Below, one piece after another: positions 1-42,572 of a stretch of 48,475 bases of DNA (its first letter is position 1; the number at the start of each line of letters is the position of its first letter). Where the stretch lies: contig CAVBZJ010000001.1 in assembly GCA_963599785.1 (NCBI GenBank), positions 17,701-66,175 on the forward strand. The letters are read 5' to 3'. The DNA comes from Anaerovoracaceae bacterium (GTDB taxonomy: Bacteria > Bacillota > Clostridia > Christensenellales > Borkfalkiaceae). Both the position numbers and the translations under genes were made by a program. The notes beneath the pieces are model-generated. The model had not been told where the DNA came from. It worked only from the letters and a program-made list of their open reading frames with translations, and searched no databases.

Positions 1-1928
1 GCCGCAAGCGTTATAATGAAAACCGTCGTCGTTTCCGCGGAATAAAGATTGCCCGCGCAACCGCTTTTTTCGGGTTTCTCGTCTTCCGCCGCCTCGTATT
101 TCTTTCCGAATTCCCCCGTTACCGTCACGTCCTTATCGAAGTCGGTATAAAAGGTTTCGGTCGGATAACCGATTGATTTTCCGTTGACGACGACCTTTTT
201 AAGCTCGTATCCCTCTTCCGCGGTAAAGATAAAGCGTATTCTTCCGTTTTTGATTTCGTACTCCGCCTTGCCGTTGCCGACGGAATCCGCGATAACGCGA
301 AGCTTTCTTACGAACACCTTGAAATGCAGATCCGCGGTCGGGTTTTTCACCTCGTAAGAATTATCCTCCGTAGCGACCGCTTCGCCGTTTAATTCCGCGC
401 GTTCTACCGTATAGCCCTCGTTCGTCAATATCTTAAACGTTACTCTGCCGTTTCTCTTAACGTAATAAATCGTCGCGCCGTTTTCTTCGTTTACTTCGGT
501 TTCTATTCCCGAAAGCTTATAGCTTATCTCGAAAACGAAGTTCTCTTTCAACTCCGCCCTGAATTCGTTGCCTTCGAGTTTTTTCTCATCGCCGTTCACG
601 GTGAAGGTTTTTACCGAATACCCCGAGCTTGGCTTTGCTGTAAATATTACCGTTCCGTTTTCCACTCTGTACTCCGCCGTTCCGCCGCCGCCCGCAACGT
701 TTACGGTCACGTCGTAAAGGTCGGAATAATCGTAAAATCTGTGGCTTTCGCTCCCTGCATAGCTTACGGAAATTCTGTCGCTGCCTTCCGAAAAGGAATA
801 AACGGTGTTCTTGTTTTCGACCGCCGCGGAAAATTCGGTTACGTTTCCTATTTCCGCTTCTTCGCCGTAGGTGTTCACGGAAATCGTTATTTCGGATATT
901 AAAGACGGTCCTTCGCCGAATACCGAATAAGGGAGACACAGCGTTCCGTTTTTGCCTTTTTCAATCGCTATCCCCTCGCCGTCGGCTATTACCTTGCCGT
1001 ATTCGTCGTTACCCGTCGCGAAGGAATATTCCCTGCCCTTTGAATAATCGGGAACGTAGGTTACGCCGCCGTGCTTTAAGGCTATTTTCACCTTTATCCC
1101 CTTTTCGCCGAGCGCGTTGAAATTAAAAAGCATCGCCGAACGCGCGTTTATCGGAGATGAGGACGAAAGGGTTATATCCGCAAAGCCTTCCGTTTTTATC
1201 ACGAGCGATTTAAGCCGCCCGTTTTCCGCGTAACCGTCCGTTACGTCGTACACCGTTTCGAGATTTTCGGTAAGAGTACATTTTTTCGCAGAAAACGCCG
1301 CGTTCGTCAGATTGCCTTCTTCGTCGAACCCGAGATTATCGAAGTCGGTCACGCTTCTGCCGCTTGTCGCGTTCAAAGCGTCCGCAAAGAACACGTTCCG
1401 CAATAAATAATGGTTTTTATGCGAGGTGTCGCCGACGAGCGTTATCTCCTTTAAGGTCACGTTCTCGTCGAGTACCTTTTTAAGCTCTATATAAATCTTG
1501 CCGTTAAAGCCCGTTTTCACGAGATACCAGCTCGTGTCCTCGAAGGGCTTGTTCGGCACGGTGAACCCCGCCGTGGTTACGTTCTCTATCCTTTCGCGGC
1601 TGTCGAGGTTATGCGCGTTCCCCGCCGAATCGGTAATAATAATCTGATAAAACGCGTATATATCGCCCGAAGCGTGTTCTACCGAATCCACCCGCATATC
1701 CAGCACGAGATATTCGTCCGTCGTTATCGGCATTTCGCCGTCCGCCGTTATTTTTACCTCCGCTTTTACGCCCGTAGCGTCGATTTTTATGCCCTCCGCG
1801 CGGACGTATCTTTCGGAAAGCTTGGCAGAATCCGCAAAAGCCGTAGTTTTTATGCTCGCCGCGCCCGCCGCAAGAAGCAGAATAAGAGAAAAAATCAACG
1901 TATACAGGATTTTAGTTTTCGCTTTCAT
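1..1928 (-). CDS. Secreted surface protein, 3' end cut by the window edge (at least 642 aa). It has a signal peptide, an N-terminal domain paralogous to the 1912..4008 and 5268..7382 products, beta-sandwich repeats, and the start of an SGC-motif C-terminal anchor.
   Basis: Absent from the ORF track because no stop codon lies in the window. ATG at 1928..1926 follows GGAGGAG (1934-1940) after 5 nt. I hand-translated 1861-1928 (MKAKTKILYTLIFSLILLLAAGA), 901-959 (KGKNGTLCLPYSVFGEGPS), 541-599 (VNGDEKKLEGNEFRAELKE) and 1-70 (EKSGCAGNLYSAETTTVFIITLAA), all in one frame without stops. Confidence 0.75.
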   Translation of the reverse strand, partial: MKAKTKILYTLIFSLILLLAAGAASIKTTAFADSAKLSERYVRAEGIKIDATGVKAEVKITADGEMPITTDEYLVLDMRVDSVEHASGDIYAFYQIIITDSAGNAHNLDSRERIENVTTAGFTVPNKPFEDTSWYLVKTGFNGKIYIELKKVLDENVTLKEITLVGDTSHKNHYLLRNVFFADALNATSGRSVTDFDNLGFDEEGNLTNAAFSAKKCTLTENLETVYDVTDGYAENGRLKSLVIKTEGFADITLSSSSPINARSAMLFNFNALGEKGIKVKIALKHGGVTYVPDYSKGREYSFATGNDEYGKVIADGEGIAIEKGKNGTLCLPYSVFGEGPSLISEITISVNTYGEEAEIGNVTEFSAAVENKNTVYSFSEGSDRISVSYAGSESHRFYDYSDLYDVTVNVAGGGGTAEYRVENGTVIFTAKPSSGYSVKTFTVNGDEKKLEGNEFRAELKENFVFEISYKLSGIETEVNEENGATIYYVKRNGRVTFKILTNEGYTVERAELNGEAVATEDNSYEVKNPTADLHFKVFVRKLRVIADSVGNGKAEYEIKNGRIRFIFTAEEGYELKKVVVNGKSIGYPTETFYTDFDKDVTVTGEFGKKYEAAEDEKPEKSGCAGNLYSAETTTVFIITLA

Positions 1929-4008
1929 CTTTTCTCCTCCTTAAAAGCAATATTGCCGCGCCGATAATCGCTGCCGCCGTCACAGGCAGTCCCGCCGTCA
2001 GCGCGGAGTTGCAGCCGCCCTTTTCGTTGTCGTTCGTTTCGGGCTTCTTTTCGACCTTCGTGAATTTCACGTTAAGATACGCGCCCGAAAGCAGCTTGCA
2101 TTTGTATTTACCGTTTTTCGGTGTTATCGTTTCGCCGTTTAAGCTTATTTCCGCGATTTCGTACCCGTCGTCTGCAACTATCGTAAATTCCACGCTTTCG
2201 TCCGCTTCGTCGAGCGTATAGTCCGCGTAACCGTTGCCTTCCGCCGTAACGCTTGCAAGGCTCTCGAAGATAACCGCCAGATAATTGTCTTTATCGTTTG
2301 CCGCAGTCACCTTTCCGTCTGTCGCCGAAATTTTTTCGCCGTTCAGATACGCTTCCGAAACCGTATATCCGAATTCGGTTTTTATCGAATATTCCACGGT
2401 CTTGCCGTCCTCGGATTTCTTCGGCGTTATTTCGCCGCCGTAATTCGCCGTGAACGAGCTTTTATATTCTCTGAATTCCGCCGAAACCTCGTAATCCTTA
2501 TCGAAAAGCGCGCGGTATTCGCCGTTTTCGTCCGCGTTGACGGGCTTGCCGTTCACCGTGAGCGAATAAAGATAACAGCCCGCGTTCGGAGTGGCTTTGA
2601 TAACGAGTATTTCGCCCTCTTCCCGATAAACAAGGCTTCCGTTTTCGGTCTCCGCAAGCTCCACTCTTCTCCCGCCGAAGGTCGCGATTATCGTTATATC
2701 CTCGCGGTATTCGGTTATCGTGTATTCCCCGTTTTCAAATTCTTCCGTTATATCTTTTCCGTTCAGAGTAACGCTTTTAAGGCTGTATCGCGCGTCCGTC
2801 GGGCGAACCTTTATCGTAACGCTTCCGTCGGCGTTCACCGTCTTTTCCGCGCTGCCCATATTCTCCGAGCCGGCGGCGACTTCGCATTTTATCTCCGCCT
2901 TTTCAAACACCGCGCTGATCTCGATATTGCCGTTTATTACTATCTCCGTGCCTTCGATTTCCCGCCCGTTCGCGGTTATTTTCACCAGCTTATACCCGTT
3001 GTCGGGAACGGCTTTGACGTAAGCAATAGTTTTGTCGCCGTTTTTATAATAGGAAAGCGTGCCGTTTTTCACCGTTTTGTCCACGCTCACCGCGTATTCG
3101 AGACATTTTGCGGAAAACTCCGTAAGCGTTGCTAAATTCGTTCTGTACACGCCGTTCACAAGCTGATTTTTTACGTCGCTTCCGTTGCTTTTCACCGAAT
3201 AGAAATACCAGCCCGATTCCGCTTTGACCTCTATTTCCGCCGTTTCGCCCTTTTCGGCGTATTTAACAGAAGTTCCCACCGTTTGCGAAACGATTCTTTT
3301 ACCGTTTCTCGTAAGCGCGTTGTTTATTATTTCCGTGCTTTCGGGAGTAAACGCGCGTTTGTTTTCGTTATTTTTTCCTTCGCAGTAGAAAATCTCCCTG
3401 ACGTCGTACGTCGCGTAGTGCGTCATATCGGAAGTAAAGGATATTCCGTCCACCGCAACGCTTTCGGTTAAAAAGTCTCCGAGGTAAATATAGAACGTTC
3501 CGTCAAAGCCCTTTTTTATAACGTAATAGCTCTGCGGCTCGGCTGTCGTTCCAGAAGTTTTTTTGTTCGCTACCGAATAGGCTTTGCCGTCCGTCGTGTA
3601 GCACTTTATTCTGTCGGCGGTAACTCTTCCGCTCCCGCCCGTCGCGGCAAAATCCTCTGCGGAAAAGCCCTCGGGCATAGTTTTTATAAGGTTATAATCC
3701 GAGGGAAGCGCGAGCGGATATTCTGTTTCCCCGTTATAAAGGGATATTCGCATATACGCGAACGCGTCCGCAGTGTTTTTTATGTCTTTCACGTTGAAAG
3801 AAACGGCGATAAAGCCGTCCTTATTCACGGTCGTCTCGGCAAAATCGTATCTTAATTCCGCCAGCACGCCCTGCGCGACTATTTCGTCCGCGGCGGAAGT
3901 CTCCGCTTTCGCGGCGGTCGGAACGCTTATTGCGAAAGCCGCCAAAGCTCCGCATATTATAGTTACGGCAAGGGCTGAAATTTTTCTTAAACGCATCGGT
4001 TTCCCCAT
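1912..4008 (-). CDS. Secreted surface protein (698 aa). It has a signal peptide, an N-terminal domain of unknown function (YYVIKKGFDGTFYIYLGDF), about five divergent InlB-B-repeat-like modules, and a C-terminal GGC motif followed by a TM helix and an RRRK tail.
   Basis: ORF track. The N-terminal hydrophobic signal is ISALAVTIICGALAAFAISVPTAAKA. Repeats follow the pattern G..V.[IV].A.P..GY. The C-terminus is EKGGCNSALTAGLPVTAAAIIGAAILLLRRRKDESEN. Confidence 0.8.
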   Translation of the reverse strand: MGKPMRLRKISALAVTIICGALAAFAISVPTAAKAETSAADEIVAQGVLAELRYDFAETTVNKDGFIAVSFNVKDIKNTADAFAYMRISLYNGETEYPLALPSDYNLIKTMPEGFSAEDFAATGGSGRVTADRIKCYTTDGKAYSVANKKTSGTTAEPQSYYVIKKGFDGTFYIYLGDFLTESVAVDGISFTSDMTHYATYDVREIFYCEGKNNENKRAFTPESTEIINNALTRNGKRIVSQTVGTSVKYAEKGETAEIEVKAESGWYFYSVKSNGSDVKNQLVNGVYRTNLATLTEFSAKCLEYAVSVDKTVKNGTLSYYKNGDKTIAYVKAVPDNGYKLVKITANGREIEGTEIVINGNIEISAVFEKAEIKCEVAAGSENMGSAEKTVNADGSVTIKVRPTDARYSLKSVTLNGKDITEEFENGEYTITEYREDITIIATFGGRRVELAETENGSLVYREEGEILVIKATPNAGCYLYSLTVNGKPVNADENGEYRALFDKDYEVSAEFREYKSSFTANYGGEITPKKSEDGKTVEYSIKTEFGYTVSEAYLNGEKISATDGKVTAANDKDNYLAVIFESLASVTAEGNGYADYTLDEADESVEFTIVADDGYEIAEISLNGETITPKNGKYKCKLLSGAYLNVKFTKVEKKPETNDNEKGGCNSALTAGLPVTAAAIIGAAILLLRRRKDESEN

Positions 4009-5267: not shown

Positions 5268-7382
5268 CTACTCCACTCCCGCAAATTTTTTCAGTAACGC
5301 AACCTGCTCTTCTTCGAGCGTTTCGCCGAGATTAGAAAGGGCGATTTCCGCAACCGATTTCACGCTTCTTGCCGCAAGCTCGTAGTAAACCGTCGTGGTT
5401 TTGCCGTTTACCGTTACGGTCACGAAAGCCCTTGCGGTAAATTCTCTTTCATATCTGCTTTCGGGAATATCCGTCAGCACCGCGTTGAATTTCTTCTCCG
5501 TCTCGGTATCCGAAAAGCTTATTTCGCCCGTTCTCGCCGCGTTTTCCGTGTCCAAAGTCAATTCTTCGCCGTCGCCGATAAGGTCGGTCGGGAGTAATAC
5601 AACCCCTATTTCAACCGTCGCGAGCGAGCTTAATTTATCGAAGCCCTGTTTATCCGCCGAATATTCAAACCGAAGCCCCGCAGGCTCGGTAAGTCTTATC
5701 GACGCGCCAAGAAATTCTATATCGAGCTTAACGATCACAGCCGTCGTGTCGGAGTTTACGACGATTTCGTCCTTCGCGAAGTAAAGCTTTCCGTCTATTT
5801 CGTAACCGATAAAGCCCGTTTCGCCGTTTTCGGGCAAAACGAAGGTTTCTCCCTCGGTTATCTCGGTTTCCGCTCCGTCAACCGTGATTTTCACCTTGAC
5901 CTTCGCGGTAAAATTCACCGCGATTTCCAAATCGCCGTCCGTTTCCGCCGTATAAACGCCGCCCGAAAGCTGAACAAGGCTTCCGTTTACGGTCAGCTCG
6001 CCCTTATACCCCGTGGGCGCGACGGGCGTTATTTTCGCGTTGCCTTCTGTCAAATCCACGGTAACGCCGCAATTCGCTATCGTTTCCGCGTAAGAAACGG
6101 CAAGCTTAACGCCGTTGGTTTCTATATTAGCTTTGTCGGTAAAAATTTTGCCTTCGGTGTAATCTATCCTCGTTTTGTTTTCGTCCTTTACCGAAGAACA
6201 GAAATACATTTGTCTTATGGTATAATCCTGAATATATCCTTTGTTCGGGTGATAAATTTTTATGCCGTCGAACGCCGTTTCGGAGGTAAAGAAGTCTCCG
6301 AGCCAAATATAGAACGTTCCGTCGAACGCCTTTTTGATAACGTAGCTGCTTGCGGAGGCGTTACCCTTATTCGGTACGGAATACGCCGCGCCCTCGCTCG
6401 TATAGCAGTTTATTCTGTCGCTCTTCACCCTTGCGCCATTCTGAAATTGAGAAGCGGTCATACCCTCGGGCAAAGCGGTTATGCTCGCGAAGTTTTGCGG
6501 CAACGAAAGATTATAATAGGTTTCGCCCGATTTAAGATATATTTTATAGTATAAATAGGTGTCGGTAGTTCCCGAAAGGGAATCTATCTTCATATCTATC
6601 GCGAGGAAGCTTTGATTCGAGACGGTAATCGGCGAATTGAATCCGTATTCGACGGTTTCCTGTCCGGAAACGGAATTTACCTTCGTTTCGCCCGTTTCAA
6701 ACCATAAAACGTCGCCGCTCGCAACGTAATATTCGTCGCCTTCGGTATTTTTCACGATATTTTCCGCAAAGAATATATCGCCTATGGTGAACGTAGGCTT
6801 GTGAGTGCCGTCCGTATTCACTTTGAGGTCGGACATTTCAAACGTTCCGTCGAAATAGTCGGGAAGATAAATGAACACCTTTCCGTTAAAGCCCTTTTTC
6901 ACCGTGAACCATACGGTGCTGTCGGTCACGCTGCCGTTGACCTTATTCGGCATCGCGTAGCCCTTTTCGGTAGTGAGATAGTTTATTCTGCTGCTCGAAA
7001 TTCTCACTCCGCCTGCTCCGCCGTAATAGTCGGCTTTGGTAAAGCCTTCGGGGTATTCGGTTGCGGAAGTCATATAATCCGCCGCCATAACGAGCAGTTT
7101 TTCCGCCCCGCCGCCGCATATCGTAAAATGGAAGGGCGTAAAGGTATCGGTAACGCCCGAGCTTATCGTGTTAAGTTCTATCGCGAGGTACTTATACTTT
7201 GCCGTGTCTACGGAAAGCGTTTCCACGCCCGATATGGTTTTCGCCGCGCTTGACGATAGCGTAAACTCGCGTTCGATGTTCTTTGCTTCGGCGGTTTTTA
7301 TGGCGCACACGCCCGAAACAACGACTATCGAAAATAACGCGACGAGTATCGCCAGCATCGCTTTTTTCATTGTTTTCGTCAT
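5268..7382 (-). CDS. Secreted protein (704 aa) with two copies of the N-terminal surface-protein domain and a C-terminal GASIRL..GLRF domain shared with the 780-aa protein
   Basis: The signal peptide is MLAILVALFSIVVVSGVCAIKTAEA. The duplicated motifs are VWFTVKKGFNGKVFIYLPDYF and SYVIKKAFDGTFYIWLGDFF. The C-terminal LGASIRLTEPAGLRFEY parallels EIRASGTAGLRFTS in the 31044..33386 product. Confidence 0.8.
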   Translation of the reverse strand: MTKTMKKAMLAILVALFSIVVVSGVCAIKTAEAKNIEREFTLSSSAAKTISGVETLSVDTAKYKYLAIELNTISSGVTDTFTPFHFTICGGGAEKLLVMAADYMTSATEYPEGFTKADYYGGAGGVRISSSRINYLTTEKGYAMPNKVNGSVTDSTVWFTVKKGFNGKVFIYLPDYFDGTFEMSDLKVNTDGTHKPTFTIGDIFFAENIVKNTEGDEYYVASGDVLWFETGETKVNSVSGQETVEYGFNSPITVSNQSFLAIDMKIDSLSGTTDTYLYYKIYLKSGETYYNLSLPQNFASITALPEGMTASQFQNGARVKSDRINCYTSEGAAYSVPNKGNASASSYVIKKAFDGTFYIWLGDFFTSETAFDGIKIYHPNKGYIQDYTIRQMYFCSSVKDENKTRIDYTEGKIFTDKANIETNGVKLAVSYAETIANCGVTVDLTEGNAKITPVAPTGYKGELTVNGSLVQLSGGVYTAETDGDLEIAVNFTAKVKVKITVDGAETEITEGETFVLPENGETGFIGYEIDGKLYFAKDEIVVNSDTTAVIVKLDIEFLGASIRLTEPAGLRFEYSADKQGFDKLSSLATVEIGVVLLPTDLIGDGEELTLDTENAARTGEISFSDTETEKKFNAVLTDIPESRYEREFTARAFVTVTVNGKTTTVYYELAARSVKSVAEIALSNLGETLEEEQVALLKKFAGVE

Positions 7383-17000: not shown

Positions 17001-20000
17001 TTCGCCCAAGCGAACACGCCAGCCGCGCTCGCCTCTTCGTTGACGGATACCGAGCGCACGTCCGTACTTATCGCGGCGCAGCCCTCCACCGTCGCGCGCT
17101 GAACGAGTCCCGCAACTCCGCCCGCATACGTTTTTCCCGAAACGCTGCTTGCCGTCACGCTCGAATTCGTGACCGTGCTGTTTTGCAGATACCCCGTAGA
17201 AGCCCACCAGATACCCGCGACTATTCCCGCCGCATAGGTAGCCATTTTGTCCTCGCCGATCGATTCAACAATACAATCCTTAACGGAGATATTTTTAATA
17301 TACGCCGAGCCGTTTTTACCGGAGACGCTCGGATTTGCGAAAACGCCCGTCGCCCCGCCGACGTATATGTCGTATCTTATATCGCCCGTCTGCGCGTTGC
17401 TGTAAGCCTTTCCCGCAACGTGCATATCCGAAACGCTTCCGCCGCCGAGAAGGGTTTTCGTCTGCGTTCTCCATCTCCAAATCGCGCCGATAAGCCCGCC
17501 CACGCTCGCCGTATCGGGATTATTTGCGGACTCGAAATAAACTACGCTTTTCGTTTCGGAATTTCCCGAAACGTTCAAAGACGTACATTGCACGTCTATG
17601 GTAAGTCCTATCGCGCCGCCGACGTAGCCCTCACATTTGAGGTCGTTGTTGTCTCCCGAAGGAAATCCGCCGTTCTGCACGCCGTATACGAAAAATTCGG
17701 AATCGCCCGAAAGATTGTTCTTTTTATTCCATTCGACGGTAAGCCCGCTTATTTCGTTAAGTCCCGCCGCAAAGCCTATCGCGCCGCCCGCGCAAACATT
17801 GTTTCCGCCTATGCCCCGCCCTCTGTCGTCTATCGAATCGAAGGAGTAGCACGCCGCTTCTACGAGCGACTGCGAGGAATAGGTTACTTTAAGGTCTTTT
17901 ATCTTCCCCGCGAAGGTCTCGTTAAAGCTGCGCACGTTCTGCAAGAGTCCCGTATAGCTTATCGCCATACCCGCGTACCCGCCCGCGCAGATTTCGCCGA
18001 TAGCCGTAGAACCGACCTCTCTGTACGCGCGGATTTCGCCATTTTTAACCGAAAATTCCACGTTGTTCACTTCGTAACCGCAAGGCAGGACGGAAGTATA
18101 CCCGCCCGCGCAAACGGAATACGGCACGCCGACCGCAGTAGTTCCCGAACTCTTTTTCGCCGCCGAGGAAGAAGCCGACTGCACCGCCGTGACCGAAAAA
18201 TCGTATTCGTGAGCGGTTATGTGGAATTTCACCGTTTCCTTGCCGTCCGTCGTAAGCATAAAGCAGTTATATCCGAACACGCCGCCCGCGTACGCAGGAC
18301 CTACGCCGTTCTGCACTGCGGAAATATCCGCGGAACACTCGAAAATATATCTTCCGCGCTCGTCCGAAAGGTTTTCTTCGTTAAAGCCGTGAGTTATATA
18401 TTTAATGCCGTCGGTATAAACGTAGCCTATCGCGCCGCCCGCGAACACCGAACCCGAGCTTAACCCGTCCTGCGACTGCGCGCGTATGCGTATTCCGCCC
18501 GACTCCTCGTCTCTGTCCGCGCTTTTCGCAAAGCGTATGCCGGCGACGGAAATTCCGACAGAGCTGTCGGAAAGATTGCTTTGGCGGTAAATCGTGCCGC
18601 AGAACCCGCCCGAAACCGCGGAAGCCGAATAAACGTCGAGCTTTTCGGGGTCTATATCCGCTTTTTCTTCGGAAGCGTCGTTCGCTATAACCGACTGAAC
18701 GTTATATTCGCCCTGAACCACTATATCCACGTCGCGGATAAAAATCGACCTTACCTCCGAAAACTCGGGAAGAGGCGATTCTCTCACGACCACTACCCCC
18801 GCGAATCCGCCCGAAACCGCAGAACCCGCAATATCTCCGAGAGAGTTCGCAAGCACCATGGCCGCTTCGCCCTCGATGACTACTCCGTCCGCATAAGCGT
18901 TCTGCAAAACCCCGCAGAAGCACCCCGCGTATACCGAAGCCTTTTCTCCGTAAGTAACGCCCGAAACGTTGTTATGCTCGCCGTCGTAAACGGCGTCGCA
19001 CCACTTTTCCACGTCCGAGGAGCATACGCCGAAAACGCCGCCTATATAAAGCGACGCGTTCTGCACTCTCGCGGAAACCGAAACCTGCGACTCTATGCCG
19101 TCGAATACTATGTTTTTGCCCGCAGTACCCGCAAGCCCGCCCGCGTTTATACGCGTTTTATCGGTTACTGCTGTATCCGTCGCCATAGTGTTTACGGCTA
19201 TATACCCCTGCACCATAGCGTTTCTTACGAGGCACGGCTTGTCGTCCGCGCCGTAAATCATAGAGAAAAAGCCGTAGTCCGCGATATAAATATCTTCTTC
19301 GCCGACGAAGTTAAACTCTTCGTAAGCGTGAGCGGTTCTCGTTATACCGATAGTCGCCGCATACCCCGCGAAGTCGAAACAGCCCTGAAAAGGCACTCCG
19401 CCCGAAGAGCGCGTACCCAGCCCGTAAAACTCCGAATTATTGATAAAAACGTTGGTCGTAAGCCTGAAATATCCGTAACGGAGCGATTCTATATCGCCGT
19501 TTTCCGCGCCGAATCTGCCGAAATCGGAAGCCGTACCCACGCCGCGCAGAATCCTTGCAAGCGCAAGCACGTCCGCTTCCTTGGAAATAAGGTACGGATT
19601 GCCGAAATAACTGCCTTTATCCTCCGCGTAAGGCTCGGTCGTCTCCACTTCTATGCTTATCTCGCCCGAAGCGGGAACGGTAAAATTTCTTATCACGGGA
19701 ACTTCCGAAGTCGTTGCGTTCGTACCGCCTTCGCCGCTTATCGTCATCGACTTGAAAAGCTTTTTTTCGTTCACAACGGTGACGGTGATTTTTCCGTTCG
19801 CGGGAACGACGTAGCTTCCGTCCTCGTTTTTCTTAACGCCGTCGCCGCCGACGTACACTTCCGTCTCCGCGCCCGTCGGAACTATTACGGAAACAGTCGC
19901 GGAATAGCTCGTGCGGGTGGAAAATAATATGGCAAAAAACGCGCACGCCACGCACGCGCAGACGAGTATTTTCAGAATTCTCGATTTTAATTTAGATTCT

Positions 20001-37808: not shown

Positions 37809-39341
37809 CTATCTTAAAACGATGAGCGCGCCCTCGCCGTAATCGAGCGTAAGCGGGATTCTGCCGCCCACGACGTCGCAGGACTTTCCGCGTTGAATCA
37901 CGGTGTATCTGTAATCGTCGCCATCGAAGGATAGAGATACGTTCGCCTTTTCTTTTCTGTTATAATTCACGACGTACAAAGCCGTGCCGCCTTTATAGTT
38001 AAAGCACCCTACGATACAATCGTCGCCCGTAACCTTTTTAAGCTGCTTATATTCGCCCGAAGAAATAATCTCTTCGCCCGATTCGCCGTCCGTGATAATC
38101 GCTTTGGTCGCCGCGTCGCCGTGTACTATGATTCCGTCGTTTTCCGACTTCATCAGGTATTCGTCTACCGCTTTCACCTGCTCGTTGGCACGTTTTGCGT
38201 AATAATACCAGCGGGTAAGGTTGCCGTCCGCGCCGATAAGCCCGTTACGGTTCTCGAAATCGTAAGTTCCGCCCTCTTCGTAGGCAAAATACAGCGGCTG
38301 AATAAGCGGGAAATACTGAATCGCTTTCGCGCCGTACGCAAGCGCAAGGTTTACGTCGTAAAGAAGCTCGCCTTCCGAGGGATACGGATCTACCGAAGGT
38401 ATCCATTCGGCAAGGTCGTTCCATTGTCCGCCCGCCTGCAACATTCTCCAAAACGGCACGCCGTATTGTTTGGAATATTTTCTGTAAATCGAAAGCTGAT
38501 TGTACATAAGCGCGGTAACGGTGGATTCGGGAGTATTTGCGGAGGTATACGGATATTGCGTTACGGAAAGCATTCTCGGCTTCGCTTCCTCGAATATCTT
38601 TTGTATATACGCGTCGTAAGCGATGGGATCGGAATAACCCCAGAAGTTATCCTCTCCTGCCCAGTAACCGTTGGCGTTCATATACATATCGAGACCTTTG
38701 CTTTCTTCGAGCAAGTAAAACGCGTCGGAGAAAACTCCGATATTGTCGAGCTGCGCCGTGAACGGTTCGTCGAACGAATGAAGCCCTATAAAGCTTTTAT
38801 ACCGCGACAAATCGGTAAGAATTTCCGCAAGAATTTTCTTTCCGCTTTCTTTGCTTAACGCCATATCTTCGATGGCTACGTCTGAGGTATGCGTGCCGAG
38901 CTGCCCCATAACCCAGTAGGAATCCACGAAATAGCCGATTCCGTACTTTTCGCAGAGGCTGAGCGCAGTGGTTATGTTGGGATTAGAGCTGCCGTACGAG
39001 TGGCGGTCTACCGAATACACGAACATATTGATGCCCGCTTCCGCTAAAACCTCGAAATAATAATCGGTTAAAAAATTCGGCATATCGTTGCCGTCGAGGC
39101 TTCCGCCCGAAGCGTACGGGACGTAGAAGCCGCCTATCGGCATAACCTCGTCGCCGCCCATAATATCGTAATAAAGCGCGTCTACCTTGCCCGCTTCGCC
39201 CTTAACCGTTTCGGTATAAGCCATACCGTCCTCGTAAAGAGTTACGAGTTTTCCCGCCGCGCCGCCGTCTTTACAAGCGGCAAAGCCCGCGGAAAACACC
39301 GAAACCGCCGCAAGCGACAACGCCAGAAATCTCTTTTTCAT
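37809..39341 (-). CDS. Lipoprotein (510 aa), putative extracellular TIM-barrel glycoside-hydrolase-like protein
   Basis: The lipobox is SAGFAACKDG. It contains LAEAGINMFVY, GLHSFDEP, VTQYPY and AYGAKAIQYFPL segments and a C-terminal beta-sandwich. The start overlaps the upstream stop (TAATG at 39341). Confidence 0.4.
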   Translation of the reverse strand: MKKRFLALSLAAVSVFSAGFAACKDGGAAGKLVTLYEDGMAYTETVKGEAGKVDALYYDIMGGDEVMPIGGFYVPYASGGSLDGNDMPNFLTDYYFEVLAEAGINMFVYSVDRHSYGSSNPNITTALSLCEKYGIGYFVDSYWVMGQLGTHTSDVAIEDMALSKESGKKILAEILTDLSRYKSFIGLHSFDEPFTAQLDNIGVFSDAFYLLEESKGLDMYMNANGYWAGEDNFWGYSDPIAYDAYIQKIFEEAKPRMLSVTQYPYTSANTPESTVTALMYNQLSIYRKYSKQYGVPFWRMLQAGGQWNDLAEWIPSVDPYPSEGELLYDVNLALAYGAKAIQYFPLIQPLYFAYEEGGTYDFENRNGLIGADGNLTRWYYYAKRANEQVKAVDEYLMKSENDGIIVHGDAATKAIITDGESGEEIISSGEYKQLKKVTGDDCIVGCFNYKGGTALYVVNYNRKEKANVSLSFDGDDYRYTVIQRGKSCDVVGGRIPLTLDYGEGALIVLR

Positions 39342-41035
39342 TATTTATCCCTCCTCTTTTTGAAGGTAATCGCAACTCCCGCCGCCGCAAGAGCCGAAAG
39401 CGCGGAAATCGCGCCGCCGAACACGCCGCTTCCGCAACCGCTTTTATCTTCCGTAAGCTTTCCGTTCGCGAGCTTGTCGCCGATAAGGTCGCCGTCGTCC
39501 GTTTTGGTCGTATAATCGTAGTCGGAAGCCTTGTCTATGTGGTTAGACTTATAATCGGGTGCGGGAATAACTTTTCTCACGCCCTCGTAATCGGTATTTC
39601 TGACCGAGAAATTGTCTATTTTGAACTGCGCGGCGGAGTTGTATTTGATACCGTTTTTGCTTATCGCGGTTTCGCCGTTAGCGATTATGGCGACGTACCC
39701 CGTTTTAAGCGAACCCATATCGAACGCGAAATACGGCTCGCCCCATTCCTTTTCGCCCTCGAAACGGTAATAAACTTCTATAAGTCCGTCGGTCATAGTG
39801 AATTTGACGCTTACCGTTCTTTCCGAGATAAAGTCTTTATCCCAAAGGCTGAAAGAAGTGCCGTTATAGCCGTTGTGCATAGGAACTACCGCTTTGGACG
39901 ACCAGCTTCGTCCGTCAAACGCCTTGTCGTAAACGACGTATCTCGCGCCGTCGTAATAGGTCGAGTGATCGACGTCCATGGGAATCCCCTCGAAATTCAG
40001 CCACGTTCCGTTTTTGATAACGTGGTCGAGATTCACGTCGGAGGAATCGAGTCCGAACGCTATTCCGAACCAGCCGCTTATAAGTCCCGTAAGGGTTTCG
40101 CCCTCGTACGTCGCTTCCGCGCGGAGGTCGGAAATATCGAAAGTCAGCTCGAAATTGCTGTATTTGTACCTCGTGCTGAAAAACGCGCCCGCGGTGTTGT
40201 TGAACCAGAGCTTGCCGTCCGCAACCGAAAGATTAGTCGGAGAAAGAGGCGAAGCGTCGCTGTGAGAATAGAACATATTCGCGTTATAGCCGTTATCGAA
40301 CGTTTCGACGTAATCGACCGTTTCGGGCGCTTCGTAGCGATAACCGTAAATCTCCGTATCGCTTAAATAAATTTCGTTCGCGCCCGAAGACAGGAACGCC
40401 GCAAAGCCCGCAGCGTCTACCCCGAGCTTATATTCCTTATAAGTTCTGCCGTTTATTTTGAACGTAAGCTCGTTATTCGTCGTAACCTCCGCGCCCACGG
40501 TAAATTCCGAACCGAGCTTTATCGAGGGAAATTCGCGGGAGGCGTAAATATCGGTCGCCGCGCCCTCTTTGCGGTATTCCGCCGCGCCTATTTTAATACA
40601 ACCCTTCCCTTCCGATACGGTTATGGCAAAGGTGTTTGCCGCACCCTTTGCCGCGGTAAAACTGCCGAGTCCGAATATCGCGGAAAACTCTCCGCCTTCC
40701 GCAAAGCTTTTCGCATTAAGGGTAATCGTCGCCGAAAACAGCACGGGAACGCCGTAATCTTTAAGGTTCGCGATATAGGCTTTCGCAACGAGCGAGCTTT
40801 CCGTTTTATCGGGAGAAAAAACCGCTTTTCCGTTCTTCGCCGTGACGCCGTTTATAAAGAAATCGCCCGAACTTATTTTGTTTTCGCCTATCGAAGAAGC
40901 GGATACGACGAGCGAGCGGGAAGCCCCCGCGCTCGCCGTTTTCGCGCCCGTGCCGAGCGTCCCCGCCGCCGCGAGAAGCGCGAACGCGAACGCCATAACC
41001 GCCACGAATATTCTTATATAAATTTTCTTTTTCAT
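39341..41035 (-). CDS. Secreted protein (564 aa) with lectin/LamG-like regions and a C-terminal SGC motif followed by a TM helix and a KKRRDK tail
   Basis: The signal peptide is IFVAVMAFAFALLAAAGTLGTGAKTASA. The C-terminus is DKSGCGSGVFGGAISALSALAAAGVAITFKKRRDK. Confidence 0.7.
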   Translation of the reverse strand: MKKKIYIRIFVAVMAFAFALLAAAGTLGTGAKTASAGASRSLVVSASSIGENKISSGDFFINGVTAKNGKAVFSPDKTESSLVAKAYIANLKDYGVPVLFSATITLNAKSFAEGGEFSAIFGLGSFTAAKGAANTFAITVSEGKGCIKIGAAEYRKEGAATDIYASREFPSIKLGSEFTVGAEVTTNNELTFKINGRTYKEYKLGVDAAGFAAFLSSGANEIYLSDTEIYGYRYEAPETVDYVETFDNGYNANMFYSHSDASPLSPTNLSVADGKLWFNNTAGAFFSTRYKYSNFELTFDISDLRAEATYEGETLTGLISGWFGIAFGLDSSDVNLDHVIKNGTWLNFEGIPMDVDHSTYYDGARYVVYDKAFDGRSWSSKAVVPMHNGYNGTSFSLWDKDFISERTVSVKFTMTDGLIEVYYRFEGEKEWGEPYFAFDMGSLKTGYVAIIANGETAISKNGIKYNSAAQFKIDNFSVRNTDYEGVRKVIPAPDYKSNHIDKASDYDYTTKTDDGDLIGDKLANGKLTEDKSGCGSGVFGGAISALSALAAAGVAITFKKRRDK

Positions 41036-41069
41036 TTTCCGGTTATCCTTTTAACGGTTACTCTTACGA

Positions 41070-42572
41070 TTAAACGTTTTTCGACCACTCGTTCCAGTTT
41101 TCTTTTATGATGCTCAATATATCGTTCCAAAGAGCTTCCGCGTCTTTACGCGCCGCCGAGTTCGTCGTCCAGACCTTATCCGCAAACGCAAGACTTGCGA
41201 ACTGATTAGTACTGCTGTTTATAAAGAGACGGGATTTGGTCATCGTGTTCGTAATCGCGGTAAGATTTTCCGCAAAATCGAACTGCTGTTTGTTCCATTC
41301 GGGAATTGCGGAAACGTCGAAAGCGGAAGAATCCGCAAGACGAGCGGAAGCGGGAAGCTTCGTCGCTCTGTTATAAGCCGCTATGCCCTTATCCGAATAG
41401 AAATATTTCAAAAATTCTTTCGCGCCGTCCTTCGCGGGGGAATATTCGGGAATGAAAACGTATTGTTCGGAAGCGTTGTTATACATAATGGTTCTTGCTT
41501 CCTTTATCTTTGCAAAATCGTTCGCGGAGCAAAGCTCGCTTTCTTCCTTGCCCGCGTCCACTTCGTCTATAATCGCCGCAAGGGTGGAATCGCTCATAGA
41601 AGTGTTTTCAAGCTTTTCCACGATACTGCTGATAACGGGGAATCTCATCATTTTTACGTTCGTTTTAGTGCCGGTGGATTCGTTCATCAGCCAGTTGCCG
41701 TTTACCATCATAATCGCGCCGCCGTCGAGATAAACCGCCTGCGCGTCTGTAAACGTACCCGTACTCGACCTCGAAACGGTGTCGGGCGTCAGAAGACTTT
41801 CCACGACTTCGAGCGCTTTGTATCTGCCGTCTTTCTTTTCAAACACCTCGCGCGAGGGGGAATTGCCGTTCTCGTCTTTTAACGCGAGCATATTGTTATA
41901 ATAATAATCGAGTCCGTCGTACTGCGCTTCCCAAGTCATAACGGAATAGTTCCAGTAACCGTTGTTGTTCGTGTCGCTGTAAAGAATCCACGGATAGGGC
42001 TTGCTTCCGTCCTGCGCGTGAAGAGCGGCGAAGGTCGCGGTAAGACTTTCGAGTTCCTTCGTCGTTCTCGGAACTTTATACGTCGTGCCGTCGATATAGT
42101 CCGCGTTATAAGCTATTCCGCACCAGCCGTTTCCGTAAGTAAGAAAACGAGTCGTTCCGTCCGCTTCCTTAACGCCGTCCAGAAGATAATCGTAGTATTT
42201 TTGTCTTATGGTAAGGCTTTCGCCCTCCGCCTTGCTGTCCAGAACGTCGTCGAGCTTAACGAAATCGTCGTTATACTGATAAGTGTTAAGCATCGTGAAA
42301 TACAAGTCGTAGGTATTGTTTTTCCCGAGTTCGAGAGTTTTGATGATCTGATTTGCCGTACCCGTTTCCACGGTCACGGTATACTCCGACTGCGCCGCAT
42401 TAAAGCTTTCGGCTATATCTTCTATAAAATCCGTGCCGAGTCCCGATTTCCAGAAATAAACCTGAATATCGGTAGAAGAATTTTGCGCGGAATCTCCCCC
42501 GCACGCCGCAAACGGAACGACGGCGGTCGCCGCCGCAAGTACGGTTGCCAGAAGCCTTTTTAATTTTTTCAT
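41070..42572 (-). CDS. ABC transporter extracellular solute-binding lipoprotein (carbohydrate type, large family-1 SBP)
   Basis: The lipobox is VPFAACGGDS. It is 500 aa and sits immediately downstream of two carbohydrate ABC permease genes. Confidence 0.75.
   Translation of the reverse strand: MKKLKRLLATVLAAATAVVPFAACGGDSAQNSSTDIQVYFWKSGLGTDFIEDIAESFNAAQSEYTVTVETGTANQIIKTLELGKNNTYDLYFTMLNTYQYNDDFVKLDDVLDSKAEGESLTIRQKYYDYLLDGVKEADGTTRFLTYGNGWCGIAYNADYIDGTTYKVPRTTKELESLTATFAALHAQDGSKPYPWILYSDTNNNGYWNYSVMTWEAQYDGLDYYYNNMLALKDENGNSPSREVFEKKDGRYKALEVVESLLTPDTVSRSSTGTFTDAQAVYLDGGAIMMVNGNWLMNESTGTKTNVKMMRFPVISSIVEKLENTSMSDSTLAAIIDEVDAGKEESELCSANDFAKIKEARTIMYNNASEQYVFIPEYSPAKDGAKEFLKYFYSDKGIAAYNRATKLPASARLADSSAFDVSAIPEWNKQQFDFAENLTAITNTMTKSRLFINSSTNQFASLAFADKVWTTNSAARKDAEALWNDILSIIKENWNEWSKNV

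Follow-up and report, generated by a model that had tools for sequence, protein, structure and literature searches.

How does a bacterium without a recognizable sortase hold proteins on its surface? The question arises from a window of 48,475 nucleotides (the whole stretch of DNA analyzed here; positions 17701-66175 of contig C1, CAVBZJ010000001.1) in the draft, metagenome-derived genome of an Anaerovoracaceae bacterium, a Christensenellaceae-like member of the gut Clostridia (GCA_963599785.1, hereafter G000; 2.14 Mb, 261 contigs, 85.5% complete). Three proteins encoded in this window end in a tripartite tail: a Gly-Cys motif, a hydrophobic transmembrane (TM) helix, and a basic cluster. An earlier note on the window suggested that such tails could be a distinct sorting or lipidation signal. 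We consider it fairly probable that a Cys-type C-terminal sorting signal, not yet catalogued, is spread through this genome and that the three tails are instances of it. An intramembrane protease of the CPBP family, here called CPBP-B, would cleave the signal, probably once the Cys has been lipidated.

The tails are present in the translations of the open reading frames (ORFs) exactly where the earlier note had placed them, and none of the three proteins has an LPXTG motif, again as it had said (table 1). A secreted surface protein of 698 aa ends in EKGGCNSALTAGLPVTAAAIIGAAILLLRRRKDESEN and an unrelated secreted protein of 564 aa ends in DKSGCGSGVFGGAISALSALAAAGVAITFKKRRDK. The third tail belongs to a protein cut by the window edge and encoded next to the gene for the 698-aa protein; the relationship proposed between these neighbors holds, the two being remotely paralogous (25% identity over 562 aa, E 2e-22). 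A run of about 48 Ns (C1, approximately 17650-17700) breaks the tail of this window-edge paralogue in the contig, and the putative continuation beyond the run reads SRRRYERLKRR*. Another secreted paralogue, of 704 aa, shares the N-terminal domain but is without a tail, which marks the tail as a portable module.

Across G000, the tail recurs on proteins that have little else in common. A regular expression retrieved 17 tails, and a proteome-wide scan with a profile built from these 17 identified 22 complete C-terminal copies (E 8e-15 to 4e-3) in addition to the copy at the window edge. The proteome-wide enrichment that the earlier note had asked about is thus borne out, with at least 22 carriers on unrelated cargo. 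When the 22 complete copies are aligned (A1), the Cys never varies and the Gly before it is conserved to at least 90%. Their consensus reads [K/E]-x-[G/S]-G-C-[G/K/N/S]-[S/G/A]-x-[V/I/L/F]-[S/D/T]-[G/A], followed by a hydrophobic helix of 18-21 residues and a K/R cluster, and 7-10 small residues separate Cys from helix in the 22 tails. Gly-Cys occurs no more than 16 residues before the helix in 22 of 62 ORFs of G000 that are at least 200 aa long and have a hydrophobic and basic end, versus 2.2% of random 22-residue windows from the same ORFs. Every carrier with a complete 5' end and an evident start has a Sec signal peptide at its N-terminus. Domains of carriers are varied and of surface type (Flg_new/Listeria-Bacteroides repeats, MucBP, BspA LRR, Big_2/Big_3, CBM_4_9, PKD, BNR_2, and FIVAR), and many carriers are without any Pfam domain. 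Several large secreted proteins encoded in G000 have a plain helix and basic end without Gly-Cys, so the motif is unnecessary for mere anchoring. One further protein has a tail-like segment in an internal position: in a 1,059-aa ORF (C60:3251-6430, +), the segment DDDDKGSGCNATTDSS and a helix occupy residues 916-947 and are followed by about 110 residues. The segment could be a tail in decay, or the protein a variant form whose cytoplasmic extension is long.

Known sorting systems do not account for these tails. LPXTG-type tails were not found in G000, and sortase (PF04203), exosortase (PF09721), and rhomboid (PF01694) have no match in this assembly of 85.5% completeness. The earlier note had reported the window to be free of sortase, exosortase, and CPBP-type genes, and no match occurs there; CPBP matches in G000 are located solely on contigs C139 and C4. 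Sortase is absent from all 25 genomes of the genus that were searched (G000 and 24 congeners) and present in 10 of 16 sister families. Omp85 has no match in G000, G017, G004, G001, or G066 and matches in 7 of 7 diderm control genomes; its absence from G000 fits a monoderm envelope. When the NCBIfam release of June 2026 was scanned against the 22 tails, no sorting-signal model reached its cutoff on any of them. Matches below cutoff in NCBIfam and Pfam are to LPXTG_anchor, NPXTG, Loki-CTERM, and tails of MYXO-CTERM-anchored families, and these reflect the helix and basic end. The MYXO-CTERM models come no closer: TIGR03901 matches 1 of 22 tails (10 bits vs. a cutoff of 20) and TIGR03382 matches 2 of 22 (best E 0.043). 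TIGR04564, the Synerg-CTERM model, has no match to the tails at E≤1. Signal models of PEP-CTERM/exosortase and GlyGly-CTERM/rhombosortase match the tails weakly, and genes for their enzymes were not found in G000. Searches of the literature led to papers on myxosortases, none of which mentions Firmicutes or Clostridia, and no published account of the signal in either group was found.

G000 encodes two CPBP proteins (PF02517), both outside the window: CPBP-A (C139, 347 aa) and CPBP-B (C4:14480-15457, 326 aa). The latter scores 54.2 bits to PF02517, for which the cutoff is 22.4. Among 63 homologous sequences of CPBP-B, residues E137, E138, H175, and H219 never vary and R142 and N178 reach at least 90% conservation, and together these form the EExxxR, FxxxH, and HxxxN/D motifs. 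The AF2 model of CPBP-B has eight TM helices (pLDDT 93.1), and its best matches in the PDB are 4CAD (MmRce1) and 6U0O (SpdC), with a probability of 1.00, TM-score of about 0.5, and E of 5e-3 to 2e-2. The positive-inside rule predicts a cytoplasmic N-terminus and places the conserved His/Asn/Asp residues within the outer half of the membrane, the expected position of a substrate's Cys. A predicted complex of CPBP-B (residues 1-285) and a 40-residue tail scored 0.02 relative to a mark of 0.32 and was not used as evidence.

CPBP-B is distributed among genomes like the tail. The first sample for profiling comprised 24 congeners (G001-G024) and 16 sister families. In this sample, tails are confined to the genus, in G002, G004, G007, G015, G017, G019, and G020, and are in 0 of 16 sister families. 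CPBP-B is present in these seven genomes and in G014, hence in 8 of 24 congeners, and the other 16 have neither. Genome G014 has an intact CPBP-B gene and a single tail (...KKGCGASAFDS...KNKKRKD, E 2.5e-3), so all eight genomes with CPBP-B have a tail. In a tree of RpoB, genomes positive for CPBP-B are in at least three separate places. The comparison with candidate enzymes that the earlier note had proposed thus singles out one CPBP clade. CPBP-A was considered as the sorting enzyme and rejected, since it is nearly universal in the genus and in 22 of 24 congeners irrespective of tails.

The pattern extends to larger samples. Across 120 genomes of the genus (cutoffs of E≤0.003 for tails and E≤1e-15 for CPBP-B), 37 have both, 5 have a tail alone, 8 have CPBP-B alone, and 70 have neither (odds ratio of 65; Fisher p of 9e-18, which is overstated because related genomes are not independent). 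GTDB genomes include approximately 400 relatives of CPBP-B, and 80 were kept for analysis. Nearly all are from metagenome-assembled genomes (MAGs) of uncultured gut Clostridia labeled as Christensenellaceae, Oscillospiraceae, or Eubacteriales, and they include one from the cultured Pumilibacter muris CLA-AA-M08. In 30 of 30 distant genomes chosen solely for carrying a relative of CPBP-B, Pumilibacter muris among them, Gly-Cys tails are present. Pumilibacter muris itself has 10 tail matches, one homologue of CPBP-B, and two Lgt genes. Conversely, in an even draw of 200 genomes from the class, the tail profile matches in two. One of these, G216, has a real tail and a CPBP-B at 215 bits; in the other, G104, the match is restricted to the helix part of the tail model and there is no CPBP-B.

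In the genus, the CPBP-B gene is a clean insertion or deletion in a conserved gene order, pepP-efp-SDR-[CPBP-B]-purA, and is located elsewhere in some genomes. Other conserved neighbors of CPBP-B were not found in G007, G014, or G216. The adjacent SDR gene was rejected as a partner, as it has the same syntenic place in tail-free genomes and in genomes without CPBP-B. In G020 (L042 731-2313) and G019 (L043 758-2334), the SDR gene overlaps CPBP-B by 4 nt in a manner that resembles translational coupling. Two homologues of CPBP-B are in longer frames with about 200 extra N-terminal residues (L063:5344-6903, 519 aa; L111:4517-5953, 478 aa), which could be fusions or have mis-called starts.

A candidate for modification of the Cys comes from the sister lineages. 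In 37 of the 80 relatives, a divergent Lgt gene is directly upstream of CPBP-B, with an overlap of 4 nt where checked, and in 9 of these 37 a gene for a tail-bearing protein precedes the Lgt-CPBP-B pair. Genomes with the coupled Lgt also hold a canonical Lgt. CPBP-B genes with the coupling and those without it fall into separate clades, and the gene of G000 belongs to the clade without it. Most genomes of the genus have a single Lgt, which scores 220-238 bits on a profile of the coupled Lgt and about 100-118 bits on PF01790, relative to about 240 bits on PF01790 for Lgt of sister families (genus-wide across G001-G024; L180-L184). Within G001-G024, a more canonical-looking copy is limited to G002, G012, and G015. 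In this genus of small genomes, it seems that the paralogue-like Lgt was retained and the canonical form lost. A dedicated second Lgt was searched for in the genus and not found, there being one Lgt per genome in most, tail-free genomes included. LspA (PF01252) was not found on the contigs of G000. The window itself encodes lipoprotein-like signal peptides (...FAACKDGG and ...FAACGGDS), though Lgt and LspA are unmatched on the contigs of this assembly.

These observations can be assembled into a pathway. Export of the precursor would be by Sec via the N-terminal signal peptide, and this step, like the architecture of the tail, can be read directly from the predicted proteins. Following the positive-inside rule, the C-terminal helix and basic cluster would act as a stop-transfer signal and leave the Cys just outside the outer leaflet. 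The invariant Cys would then be modified, most likely by S-lipidation, and by analogy the candidate enzyme is the usually single, divergent Lgt of the genus. CPBP-B, as an Rce1-type glutamic intramembrane protease, would cut after the Cys and remove the helix; its link to the tail is supported by comparative genomics. The mature protein would end up attached to the cell surface through its C-terminus, and the system would replace LPXTG/sortase in the genus. This raises a wider possibility, which we put forward tentatively, that monoderm gut Clostridia have a mirror image of the lipoprotein pathway, in which an Lgt-type transferase acts on a C-terminal Cys and an Rce1-type protease cuts. If so, a C-terminal lipid anchor would hold dozens of adhesins and enzymes, surface display would run mainly by this route where sortase was lost, and the Lgt family would supply the missing lipidation step of all Cys-type signals, MYXO-CTERM included.

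The closest precedents are signals of this kind in other phyla. Four Cys-type signals have been tied to CPBP enzymes (10.1101/2023.06.07.544157). One link is experimentally proven, as the CPBP protease MrtX cuts MYXO-CTERM in a Cys-dependent manner (PMC11980579), and the three others are predicted (10.1101/2023.06.07.544157). The Clostridia tails resemble MYXO-CTERM (TIGR03901/TIGR03382; MrtX, NF040914) in having a Gly-rich motif with an invariant Cys, then a short spacer, TM helix, and basic cluster, and in occurring dozens of times per genome on unrelated surface proteins exported by Sec. The linked enzyme in both is a housekeeping CPBP/Rce1-type protease encoded away from its substrates. 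They differ in that the Clostridia tails are far under the model cutoffs (at most 10 bits vs. 20), CPBP-B scores 16 bits relative to 100 for Mrt_core, and the basic cluster is Lys-rich rather than Arg-rich. The hosts of MYXO-CTERM are diderm and use type II secretion to reach the surface of the outer membrane, whereas the host here is a monoderm member of the Clostridia without Omp85. In such a host, a type II secretion system, itself not searched for, would have no outer membrane across which to carry the protein.

Comparisons with other systems follow the same lines. Synerg-CTERM of the Synergistota (TIGR04564; MrtS, NF040589) likewise has a Ser/Gly-rich motif that ends in an invariant Cys, a helix, a basic cluster, and predicted processing by a CPBP enzyme, but it has no spacer between Cys and helix (10.1101/2023.06.07.544157), in contrast to the 7-10 residues of the Clostridia tails. 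Its system is tied to the type II secretion system, and CPBP-B scores 18.5 bits on MrtS relative to a cutoff of 130. LPXTG/sortase A shares surface display in monoderms and a similar cargo (MucBP, LRR, Big, FIVAR, and Listeria-Bacteroides repeats) ahead of a helix and basic tail. However, LPXTG-type tails were not found in G000, and sortase was not found in any of the 25 genomes of the genus that were searched. The signature residue of the Clostridia tails is Cys, and an intramembrane glutamic protease, not a transpeptidase, is the candidate enzyme. The N-terminal lipoprotein pathway (Lgt, LspA) and the CAAX pathway (prenyltransferase, Rce1, ICMT) share the proposed logic, in which a Cys beside a helix is lipidated and a protease removes the helix. 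Relative to the former, the topology is mirrored, with the Cys N-terminal to a helix at the C-terminus of the protein, and the -3 position is K/E/N instead of the Leu of the lipobox. Relative to the latter, no ICMT-like gene tracks the tails. The system works like that of myxosortases, but its tail falls below the cutoffs of every catalogued signal and its protease below those of every Mrt model, and together with the enrichment and the profiling, this supports the suggestion of a distinct, dedicated signal, for which cleavage and modification of the Cys would be the expected processing steps.

Several results weigh against the proposed pathway or limit how firmly it can be stated. We infer, rather than observe, cleavage after the Cys and its lipidation. 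The Lgt of the genus is also in tail-free genomes, so profiling lends no support to lipidation here, and lgt of either type was not found on the contigs of G000. The latter is attributable to an assembly gap, as the flanks of lgt in G017 (C6:59283-60050) map to the ends of C94 and C130 of G000. An ICMT-like methyltransferase (PF04140) was rejected as a third step, being absent from G000, G017, G004, and G007 and mostly in tail-free genomes. As to the protease, CPBP-B scores low on curated myxosortase models (16.2 bits vs. a cutoff of 100 for Mrt_core, NF040914; 18.5 vs. 130 for MrtS; 16.1 vs. 75 for MrtJ, NF033192). Neither CPBP-B nor CPBP-A reaches the cutoff of any of these models or of MrtA (NF040590), and CPBP-A has 33 bits relative to the 130 of MrtS. 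As to co-occurrence, shared ancestry inflates the Fisher value, the five tail-only genomes (three of them 93-96% complete) each have one genuine Gly-Cys tail with CPBP-B undetected at E≤1e-15, and the eight genomes with CPBP-B alone have no tail at E≤0.003. The exceptions in both directions make the link strong, not absolute.

These points leave room for other explanations. CPBP-B could cleave the tail without lipidation, with the Cys serving as a recognition element or being joined to a wall polymer, a disulfide partner, or a non-Lgt lipid, and the protein either released or otherwise bound. The co-occurrence evidence fits this equally, no lipid transferase tracks the tails in the genus, and the chemistry of the Cys is undetermined even for MYXO-CTERM (PMC11980579). 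We nevertheless regard it as unlikely, since CPBP-B of the sister clade shows translational coupling to a paralogue of Lgt and has tail genes immediately upstream of the pair, characterized Rce1-type enzymes use Cys-lipidated substrates (10.1101/2023.06.07.544157), and a cargo of adhesins (MucBP, LRR) favors retention on the cell. The tail could also be a plain, unprocessed membrane anchor. Gly-Cys would then be structural or juxtamembrane, for example in a disulfide, and the link to CPBP-B incidental, with CPBP-B serving elsewhere, for instance in bacteriocin immunity or maturation, as other CPBP proteins do. Many bacterial CPBP proteins do have functions other than sorting, five genomes have their one tail with CPBP-B undetected, and cleavage of the tail is predicted rather than observed. 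But a plain anchor does not predict a Cys that is invariant over 22 unrelated proteins and in distant lineages of Clostridia, nor tails in 30 of 30 genomes chosen for CPBP-B when the sister families show 0 of 16 and the class draw about 1 of 200. G000 also encodes plain anchors that lack Gly-Cys, and the neighbors of CPBP-B are housekeeping genes with no bacteriocin-like gene beside it. We therefore consider a plain anchor quite improbable.

Alternatively, the signal is real and a different enzyme processes it, with CPBP-B sharing the distribution of the true machinery. Profiling covered candidate genes, so other genes of G000 could have the same distribution, and the five tail-only genomes fit such a scenario. 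It is nonetheless very improbable, as no other known family of sorting enzymes is present, CPBP enzymes are tied to all four Cys-type signals known to date, with experimental proof for one of them (PMC11980579), and the SDR neighbor of CPBP-B is also in tail-free genomes. Processing by CPBP-B, probably of a lipidated tail, is the explanation we favor.

To our knowledge, Cys-type signals paired with CPBP enzymes have so far been described for diderm bacteria and archaea alone (Myxococcota, Synergistota, some proteobacteria, and Thermococci). The same logic would here operate in monoderm, sortase-less, and mostly uncultured gut Clostridia, and its cargo consists of adhesin-like and carbohydrate-binding proteins that meet host and diet. 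With a model of the tail, annotation would improve for thousands of MAG proteins whose ends currently pass for a plain C-terminal helix. Variation within the genus, where the protease is in about 45 of 120 species, is a natural experiment, and the cultured carrier Pumilibacter muris CLA-AA-M08, together with the coupling to Lgt in sister lineages, makes the Cys-modifying enzyme testable.

Table 1. Genes for tail-bearing proteins, their parts, and a tail-less paralogue in the window.
Feature	Position	Strand	Details
Gene for 698-aa secreted surface protein	1912..4008	-	ORF; PF18998 InlB B-repeat-like domain, E 4e-8; tail profile, E 7e-12
Predicted Sec signal peptide of 698-aa protein	3904..4008	-	MGKPMRLRK...PTAAKA, then ETSA; site placed by eye, AxA rule
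Tripartite tail of 698-aa protein and stop codon	1912..2034	-	NDNEK-GGC-NSALTAG, helix LPVTAAAIIGAAILLL, RRRKDESEN; GGC codons 2019-2011
Gene for window-edge paralogue, 642 aa inside window	1..1928 (ORF 3..1928)	-	Tail starts EKSGCAGNLYSAETTTVFIITLA; SGC 65-57; runs past edge
Gene for 564-aa secreted protein, unrelated, no Pfam domain	39341..41035	-	ORF; tail profile, E 8e-14
Tripartite tail of 564-aa protein and stop codon	39341..39463	-	GKLTEDK-SGC-GSGVFGG, helix AISALSALAAAGVAITF, KKRRDK; Cys codon 39436-39434
Gene for 704-aa secreted paralogue, tail-less	5268..7382	-	Shared N-terminal domain, twice; 40% identity over 159 aa to 698-aa protein

The gene for the window-edge paralogue is downstream of that for the 698-aa protein on the minus strand, and its start (1928) is 17 nt inside the latter (stop codon at 1912-1914), such that the two genes overlap. 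The gene for the 564-aa protein is flanked by two lipoprotein-like genes (37809-42572, all on the minus strand). One encodes a protein of 510 aa without a Pfam domain (37809..39341), and its start is overlapped by the stop codon of the tail gene. The other, of 500 aa (41070..42572), has a weak match to PF01547, an ABC solute-binding family, that is below cutoff (21 bits vs. 26). The layout looks like that of a nutrient-uptake operon with a surface-anchored partner.

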